IMG/VR virus record: IMGVR_UViG_2724679293_000033
Span: 1 to 25,904 of that record
DNA length: 25,904 nucleotides
Source of the DNA: a virus
Taxonomy: Duplodnaviria; Heunggongvirae; Uroviricota; Caudoviricetes
Reading direction: 5' to 3' (one strand)
Shown here: positions 9,461 through 9,831 of the stretch, in pieces
How the letters are laid out: each line of letters begins with the position of its first letter
Numbering within the stretch: position 1 is the stretch's first letter
Position numbers and translations under genes: made by a program
Notes under the pieces: generated by a model
What the model was told of the DNA's origin: nothing
What the model saw: the letters and a program-made list of their open reading frames with translations, nothing else
Databases searched by the model: none

Positions 9461-9486
9461 GGCGGTGTTAGCACCGCCTTTAATTA
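9461..9486 (+). terminator. Candidate terminator after P (nin-region, tR2-like)
   Basis: Hairpin ggcggtg-ttag-caccgcc at 9461-9478 followed by TTTAATTAAA on the plus strand. Confidence 0.4.
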
Positions 9487-9831
9487 AAGCTCAGAAAGCT
9501 GTGATAATATTTTTTCTGGAGTGGTTTCGTTGGAAATGCTAAATAATACAGCACCTTTGACTGATTCATCTCTCATTTCAATTTCACATGAATTATGGTT
9601 GTATGAGATTGCATAATTTTTTAATGTTCTTTCGCTTTGCCACCACACCATATTTGCAAGACTTCCGTTATACGTTCTTATCTCGATTGATCCGGGCAGG
9701 GCTTTCCAGATAACACCTCCTAGCAATGTAAGAGCGGCTGCACCAACATTTTTTGCATGATGGTTAGAACGTTCCATTACCCCTTCAGCATAACGATGAA
9801 GAATCTCTATGTCAGTCGCTTTGATAGTCAT
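9484..9831 (-). CDS. Uncharacterised 115-aa protein, reverse-oriented orphan gene in the ren slot
   Basis: ORF on the strand opposite the early-right operon, flanked by AT-rich non-coding DNA (9832-10060); no family recognised. Confidence 0.55.
   Translation of the reverse strand: MTIKATDIEILHRYAEGVMERSNHHAKNVGAAALTLLGGVIWKALPGSIEIRTYNGSLANMVWWQSERTLKNYAISYNHNSCEIEMRDESVKGAVLFSISNETTPEKILSQLSEL

Follow-up and report, generated by a model that had tools for sequence, protein, structure and literature searches.

The only solved member of the VCH_CASS14 family is Vch_cass14 (Protein Data Bank (PDB) entry 3IMO), a Vibrio cholerae integron cassette protein presented by Sureshan et al. in 2013 (PMC3548836). 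Its crystals and size exclusion revealed a helix-mediated homodimer (PMC3548836). Each subunit carries a deep hydrophobic pocket of ~15 Å that held the density of an unidentified linear, fatty-acid-like ligand, with Tyr14, Arg21 and Asn60 at the pocket mouth, where acetate was bound, and a sequestering, transport or enzymatic role was proposed by the authors (PMC3548836). Here we describe a homologous gene at positions 9484..9831 (-) of a stretch of lambdoid prophage DNA (IMG/VR record IMGVR_UViG_2724679293_000033, positions 1 to 25,904), termed the window, i.e. the whole 25,904 nucleotides analysed. The identity, unit structure and mobility of this gene are secure, and its genomic context makes defence a reasonable candidate role and the most likely one.

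Lysogen-expressed prophage morons and exclusion genes include lambda rexAB, sieB and bor, and P22 sieA. Small genes of integrons are a further point of reference: in a screen of the V. cholerae chromosomal integron, a single small gene sufficed for defence in 14 of 16 systems (Darracq et al. preprint, 10.1101/2024.07.02.601686).

Family, fold and conserved pocket

Starting with ATG, the coding sequence specifies a product of 115 amino acids (RefSeq WP_000152742.1; 12.9 kDa, isoelectric point (pI) 6.1, cytoplasmic by prediction). An earlier note on this DNA, made from the letters alone, had pointed to this opposite-strand open reading frame (ORF), which is present as described, and had regarded it as an orphan without a motif. 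The remote homology search that the note itself proposed leads to a different conclusion, as it places the protein clearly in Pfam PF18315 (VCH_CASS14), with 71.7 bits where the gathering cutoff is 26.7 and with E 5.7e-20 over positions 2-92 of the 97-position profile. It also matches PHROG 5959, in the function-unknown category, and PDB 3IMO by phmmer (E 1.3e-17, query 3-109 to chain 23-127, 107 residues). The supposed orphan thus belongs to a family that has a crystal structure and accounts for 469 clusters (50% identity) in a set of 1.84 billion representatives. Family members are nearly all stand-alone proteins of 110-115 amino acids, the rare fusions carrying Lys/Ala/Pro-rich tails, a Clp_N domain or an N-terminal repeat. 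No match to the window protein was obtained in an NCBIfam scan, and Foldseek returned nothing significant among BFVD viral predicted structures. In the literature search, Sureshan 2013 was the only work mentioning the family, PF18315, phrog_5959 or WP_000152742.

The window protein has the two-layer alpha+beta sandwich of the family, with the element order b1-a1-a2-b2..b6-a3. When the list of 3IMO pocket residues (PMC3548836) was transferred through the phmmer alignment, 12 of the 20 positions turned out to be identical and the remaining 8 conservative, and the pocket-mouth residues Tyr14, Arg21 and Asn60 are all identical to those of 3IMO. Conservation extends to the family: of 79 diverse members, 69-76 retain each of Y14, R21, H24, H25, N60, W63, Y73, Y77 and H79. 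According to strand periodicity, from which facing was derived instead of from coordinates, Y73, Y77 and H79 should face the pocket, and W63, E85 and R87 should lie on the exposed face of the sheet. By homology to 3IMO, the window protein is probably dimeric, and it may well bind a ligand in its pocket. The basic nucleic-acid-binding surface noted for 3IMO was also considered as a family trait and was rejected, the median pI being 6.4 in the family and 6.1 in the window protein.

An ORF of this length seldom arises by chance: when the 716-bp module in which the gene resides was shuffled 2000 times at the mononucleotide level, at least 115 codons were reached in 14 cases. In comparisons of the gene with enterobacterial homologues from proviruses and genome contigs (63-75% protein identity), nonsynonymous divergence (dN) is 0.17-0.30 and synonymous divergence (dS) is saturated in most pairs, while dN/dS is 0.05-0.11 in pairs with measurable dS. 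Judged by these ratios, the gene is under strong purifying selection and is a working gene. Another minus-strand ORF, of 127 amino acids at 8988-9371, overlaps P, has no support and was dismissed as spurious.

A mobile module in place of ren

With 100% identity, the window matches a lambdoid prophage that is integrated at tRNA-Arg beside fimZ in the bovine Escherichia coli strain 7_33_46A; the background is a Shiga-toxin-type E. coli. The order of the prophage is int...exo-bet-gam...repressor-YdaS/YdaT-O-P-[gene]-antirepressor-HEPN pair-ybcN-ninE-rusA-Q. The gene lies 205 bp beyond the P stop, on the opposite strand, within an inserted module of ~716 bp (9290..10005, 37-38.5% GC) between P and the nin leader. 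On the left, homology to other P-carrying prophages stops at 9289, past which most prophages sharing the same P run straight on into annotated ren. On the right, the boundary is the start of a 162-nt nin-leader repeat, and conserved lambdoid sequence resumes at ~10006-10050. Because P homology ends at 9289 and the nin leader resumes at ~10006, the module takes the place of ren, in accordance with the position assigned by the earlier note. Of 5426 complete E. coli genomes, 181 carry the module core (9400-9990), each in one copy and with at least 99.2% identity; at least three lambdoid prophage backgrounds are represented.

The slot is variable in related prophages: one has a ren-sized hypothetical gene and two small ORFs there, another a DUF6864 gene pair together with an IS481 remnant. 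The wider segment from P to ybcN is a cargo hotspot, as seen in three E. coli prophages with the same P (L117, L118 and L135). In one E. coli strain, emrE directly follows ren.

The module begins with a spacer of its own (9290..9460, 34% GC), which reaches from the end of P homology to the hairpin and is without a recognisable feature or Rfam match. A GC hairpin follows at 9461..9478, 5 nt past the stop of the gene, with a 7-bp stem and a 4-nt loop (GGCGGTG-TTAG-CACCGCC). Its folding energy is -15.8 kcal/mol on the strand of the gene (z -3.7) and -19.5 on the plus strand, which continues as TTTAATT. A terminator scan missed this hairpin, its T-run rule being unmet. Since 5 of the 7 compared homologous genes, all from other species, carry a GC hairpin directly past the stop, we consider the hairpin to be part of the gene unit; as these comparisons suggest, ORF and hairpin tend to travel together. 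It is the probable terminator of the gene, and may also be a stop for rightward transcription leaving P.

On the other side of the gene, a Shine-Dalgarno motif, GGAA (9837..9840, -), can be read 5 nt before the ATG, and a GGA motif ~5-9 nt before the start is present in all 8 genes compared. The upstream region of the module (9832..10005, -; 35% GC) is the presumed bearer of the promoter. It includes a candidate extended -10 element, the promoter-like match TGCTATATT (9893-9885, -), and a candidate promoter ATGACT-18-AATAAT (9991-9962, -; 9/12 match). A further promoter-like match on the minus strand (9858-9830) was rejected, as its -10 element overlaps the start codon. The broader interval 9832-10060 has 32% GC, compared to 48% in the window and 53% in P, and contains short ORFs only; its distal part, from 10006, is the conserved nin-leader repeat.

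Both the hairpin bounding the gene, confirmed by sequence and folding, and the AT-rich non-coding DNA upstream agree with the description in the earlier note. Its proposal of an independently transcribed moron is sustained in part: the gene has its own Shine-Dalgarno motif, hairpin, low GC content and presence/absence variation, but promoter-like sites are no commoner upstream of it than by chance. The gene is best read as an autonomous accessory unit, probably expressed in the lysogen. Its antisense orientation, its private hairpin and its position in place of ren are all in keeping with expression in the lysogen that pR would counteract.

Distribution in proviruses and on other mobile elements

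Six diverged provirus contigs carry a homologue, and in five of them it reads antisense to both flanking genes; the sixth contig breaks off beside the homologue, leaving only the upstream neighbour visible, to which the homologue is likewise antisense. In Enterobacter prophage contigs the arrangement is cI-YdaS-YdaT-O-P...DUF551-[gene, reversed]-theta-like...NinE-NinG-Q, again antisense to both flanks. Another provirus has the order DnaB...[gene, reversed]...NinB-NinG-Q, and in a third one the homologue stands beside int/xis. A tblastn search of 50,697 sequenced phage records gave no match, and a scan of genome contigs for homologues gave no confirmed locus. Absence from the phage records argues for a cargo of benefit to the host, and against a core phage gene, a typical anti-defence gene or a typical gene of phage benefit.

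Carriers of homologues are prophages, plasmids and islands. On the Serratia marcescens chromosome, AbiU lies 35 bp upstream of a 67%-identical homologue in the same orientation. The two genes form an islet (4218-6348 in loci L032-L034) between housekeeping genes on 24 contigs, the AbiU protein being of 582 amino acids with Pfam AIPR. Elsewhere, PDC-S06 is positioned 18 bp upstream of a homologue which is overlapped downstream by a Zn-phospholipase C gene and adjoined by an integrase. A complete Pycsar system (PycTIR + PycC) follows a homologue after 193 bp on an Azospirillum plasmid, and an Old-like nuclease together with PDC-S19 adjoins another. In a second context of the identical protein, a CBASS-type pair (CD-NTase + TIR-STING protein, by Pfam only) lies ~1.2 kb away. 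In addition, there are homologue loci with overlapping or adjacent integrases, and Cas1-Cas2 is located ~4.4 kb off.

A metagenomic sample of 80 homologue loci provided 111 distinct immediate neighbours. The ten largest of these include DRT2 (42 bp) and a type IIG-like methyltransferase (126 bp) upstream, a HEC-05/GmrSD-like gene (97 bp) and IetS (83 bp) downstream, and one weak Shedu-like match. Such neighbourhoods are the classical signature by which new defence genes are nominated, and at least nine defence systems, unrelated to one another and self-sufficient, adjoin members of this family. This and the antisense placement in prophages are both consistent with an accessory or exclusion gene expressed in the lysogen; the earlier note had inferred a candidate lysogenic-conversion or exclusion factor.

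No conserved partner gene was detected in twelve genomic contexts looked up or at the 80 metagenomic loci; the 111 neighbours at the latter form 7 small clusters, the largest having 4 members from closely related loci. There is no partner gene in the window itself either. In one subclade (L045, L046, L048 and L052), an ORF of 165 amino acids, without Pfam or PADLOC match, starts 3 bp past the homologue stop or overlaps it; no other neighbour was seen to recur, and this one could be a partner specific to the clade.

With respect to integrons, an attC site was indicated by a crude pattern in 1 of 75 metagenomic homologue loci, and one array-like locus (L131-134) is cassette-like, with a ParE-like gene. 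Going by that crude pattern, integron residence appears to be a minority lifestyle for the family.

Proposed role and rival explanations

The reading that we rank first, although with less than even confidence, is that of a stand-alone phage or mobile-element conflict or defence factor which acts through the conserved pocket and constitutes an autonomous accessory unit. In this model, the gene, antisense to the early-right operon and ending at its own hairpin, would be expressed chiefly in the lysogen, and N-antiterminated read-through from pR would work against it in lytic growth. Its product would be an alpha+beta sandwich forming a homodimer via helices, with the deep ~15-Å pocket and Tyr14/Arg21/Asn60 at the mouth. 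The pocket would accommodate a small ligand of amphipathic character or a hydrophobic stretch of peptide, and the conserved exposed face of the sheet would perhaps contact a partner. The outcome could be superinfection exclusion, defence, or defence modulation.

Several observations weigh against a defence role or against the window gene as a functional carrier of it. A PADLOC-DB 2.0.0 scan of the window protein gave 0 families at E <= 1, the literature gives the family no function, and a fatty-acid-like density in a hydrophobic pocket does not by itself suggest an antiviral mechanism. Metabolic genes and unknown ORFs are numerous among the metagenomic neighbours, in which each Pfam family occurs once, and the adjacency to defence genes is a raw tally. 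Promoter-like sites upstream of the gene number 5, compared to 3.9 expected from shuffles. Copies are near-identical, so that selection on the window's own gene cannot be judged, and P of the window has lost 107 bp, which leaves a possibly defective prophage.

The same pocket could also serve a protein that binds or sequesters a small molecule for a host benefit unrelated to phages, directed at a toxic lipid-like compound, an antibiotic or a fatty-acid-type signal, and resembling the small dimeric drug-sequestering proteins on mobile elements. Besides the linear ligand and acetate in the 3IMO pocket and the proposal of its authors (PMC3548836), the conservation of all pocket residues in the window protein speaks for this explanation, as do the origin of the founding member as an integron cassette, resistance genes being common in that class, and the many homologue neighbours that are not defence genes. 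It leaves unexplained, however, both the placement beside at least nine unrelated defence systems and the antisense placement in prophage early regions; moreover, as the crystal was grown with PEG3350, the linear density could be an artefact, a suggestion of ours with which the 3IMO authors disagree. We consider it unlikely on balance. A counter-defence or brake protein, i.e. a sponge, or an inhibitor dampening an immune effector or signal of the host in the service of the mobile element, so that the prophage or its neighbours could be induced or maintained without harm to themselves, would likewise be small, stand-alone, equipped with a ligand pocket and carried by prophages, plasmids and islands, and the co-oriented position near abortive-type effectors (AbiU 35 bp, PDC-S06 18 bp, DRT2 42 bp) could reflect a brake. 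This is improbable in view of the lack of any match in the 50,697 phage genome records and the orientation antisense to lytic transcription in lambdoid prophages. In addition, the partners differ each time with no single target evident, the pocket is aliphatic and not nucleotide-shaped, and in Serratia the gene is stably chromosomal beside AbiU on 24 contigs.

Immunity proteins, too, typically have this size and an alpha+beta fold, and homologues are met in variable islands and cassette-like arrays beside ParE-like, BrnT, Fic and HicB-like genes, as would be anticipated for an orphan immunity or antitoxin-like protein shielding the lysogen from a toxin of competitors or of a lost partner gene. 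No toxin recurs, however, among the 111 immediate neighbours, and a conserved buried pocket with a polar constellation suits a small ligand, not a variable protein interface; we therefore give this explanation little credence. Still harder to maintain is a phage life-cycle gene standing in for ren, in exclusion protection or replication adjustment, despite its location in the exact ren slot after P. Homology to Ren was rejected (BLASTP E 7.4 against a Ren protein annotated in an E. coli prophage), the gene has a hairpin of its own and runs on the opposite strand, most occurrences of the family lie outside phages, and the slot holds unrelated cargo in other prophages.

Returning to the defence or conflict factor, its most far-reaching form is possible but doubtful. 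According to it, VCH_CASS14 would be a so far overlooked family of single-gene anti-phage or immune-modulating proteins, with a fold unique among solved structures. The 113-aa dimer would sense or sequester a lipid-like small molecule or hydrophobic peptide in its buried pocket, and the family would be exchanged as a minimal cargo among integron cassettes, defence islands and prophage slots, including those of Shiga-toxin-producing E. coli. If phage defence or its modulation is indeed the role, the family would be among the smallest stand-alone immune proteins, and its mechanism would be testable at once, given that a 1.8-Å structure with a defined ligand pocket already exists. It would also provide a function for a "novel fold" integron cassette lacking one since 2009, and the slot between P and nin in lambdoid prophages of pathogenic E. 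coli would join the exchange sites of immune cargo. If the protein is only a ligand-binding fitness factor, the gain is an upgraded annotation, from hypothetical protein to VCH_CASS14-family protein.

Other features of the neighbouring region

The nin leader is present in the window as a 162-nt direct repeat (10006-10167 and 12328-12489, 81% identity), and the small ORF of its first copy is annotated as truncated. In phage 82, the nin leader is described with a putative promoter, a regulator site and 'orf33'. The two copies bracket a separate isrK/antirepressor/HEPN cargo, which suggests its entry by recombination within the leader.

Within this cargo, isrK small RNA (10348-10420) and C4 antisense RNA (10445-10532) directly precede an antirepressor-like gene (10584-11192; Bro-N/P22AR_C). 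Just before isrK there is a sigma-70 match of 10/12 (TTGACG-18-TATATT, 10310-10339), divergent from the VCH_CASS14 gene. The segment 10310-11192 is of the same type as the isrK-orf45-anrP switch described in Salmonella Gifsy-1 (PMC4825925). Downstream, a HEPN-domain gene (11492-11908) overlaps a 133-amino-acid ORF (11887-12288) without family match, both in DNA of 33-36% GC. The pair (11492-12288) has a weak PADLOC match to the candidate system PDC-M28A (E 1.8e-7) and is possibly a two-gene defence or toxin-antitoxin cargo.

Comparison with known systems

The window protein and Vch_cass14 share ~33-40% identity, and the former differs by a two-residue insertion at 66-67, shared by few members. 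Their genes differ in surroundings: the window gene occupies a prophage slot and has its own hairpin, whereas Vch_cass14 is an attC-bounded cassette. An integron cassette was also considered for the window and rejected, because the downstream element is a simple 7-bp hairpin, with neither R''/R' core sites nor attC.

With the cassettes of Darracq et al., the family shares first discovery as an integron cassette, small size and single-gene format. None of their 16 systems matches the VCH_CASS14 family (10.1101/2024.07.02.601686). In 2013, the closest relatives of Vch_cass14 were non-Vibrio proteins with 46-62% identity (PMC3548836); hence strain N16961 is probably without Vch_cass14, which was probably not in the cassette screen.

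Lambda Ren shares with the window gene the slot directly after P and is of comparable length (100 and 115 amino acids, respectively). Ren is encoded rightward as part of the pR operon, in an overlap with the end of P, in contrast to the leftward window gene with its own hairpin.

Compared to rexAB, sieB, bor and sieA, the window gene has no homology to any of them and no membrane segment in its product. Nevertheless, it resembles these morons in being an independent unit of atypical composition, with presence/absence variation and an orientation decoupled from lytic transcription.
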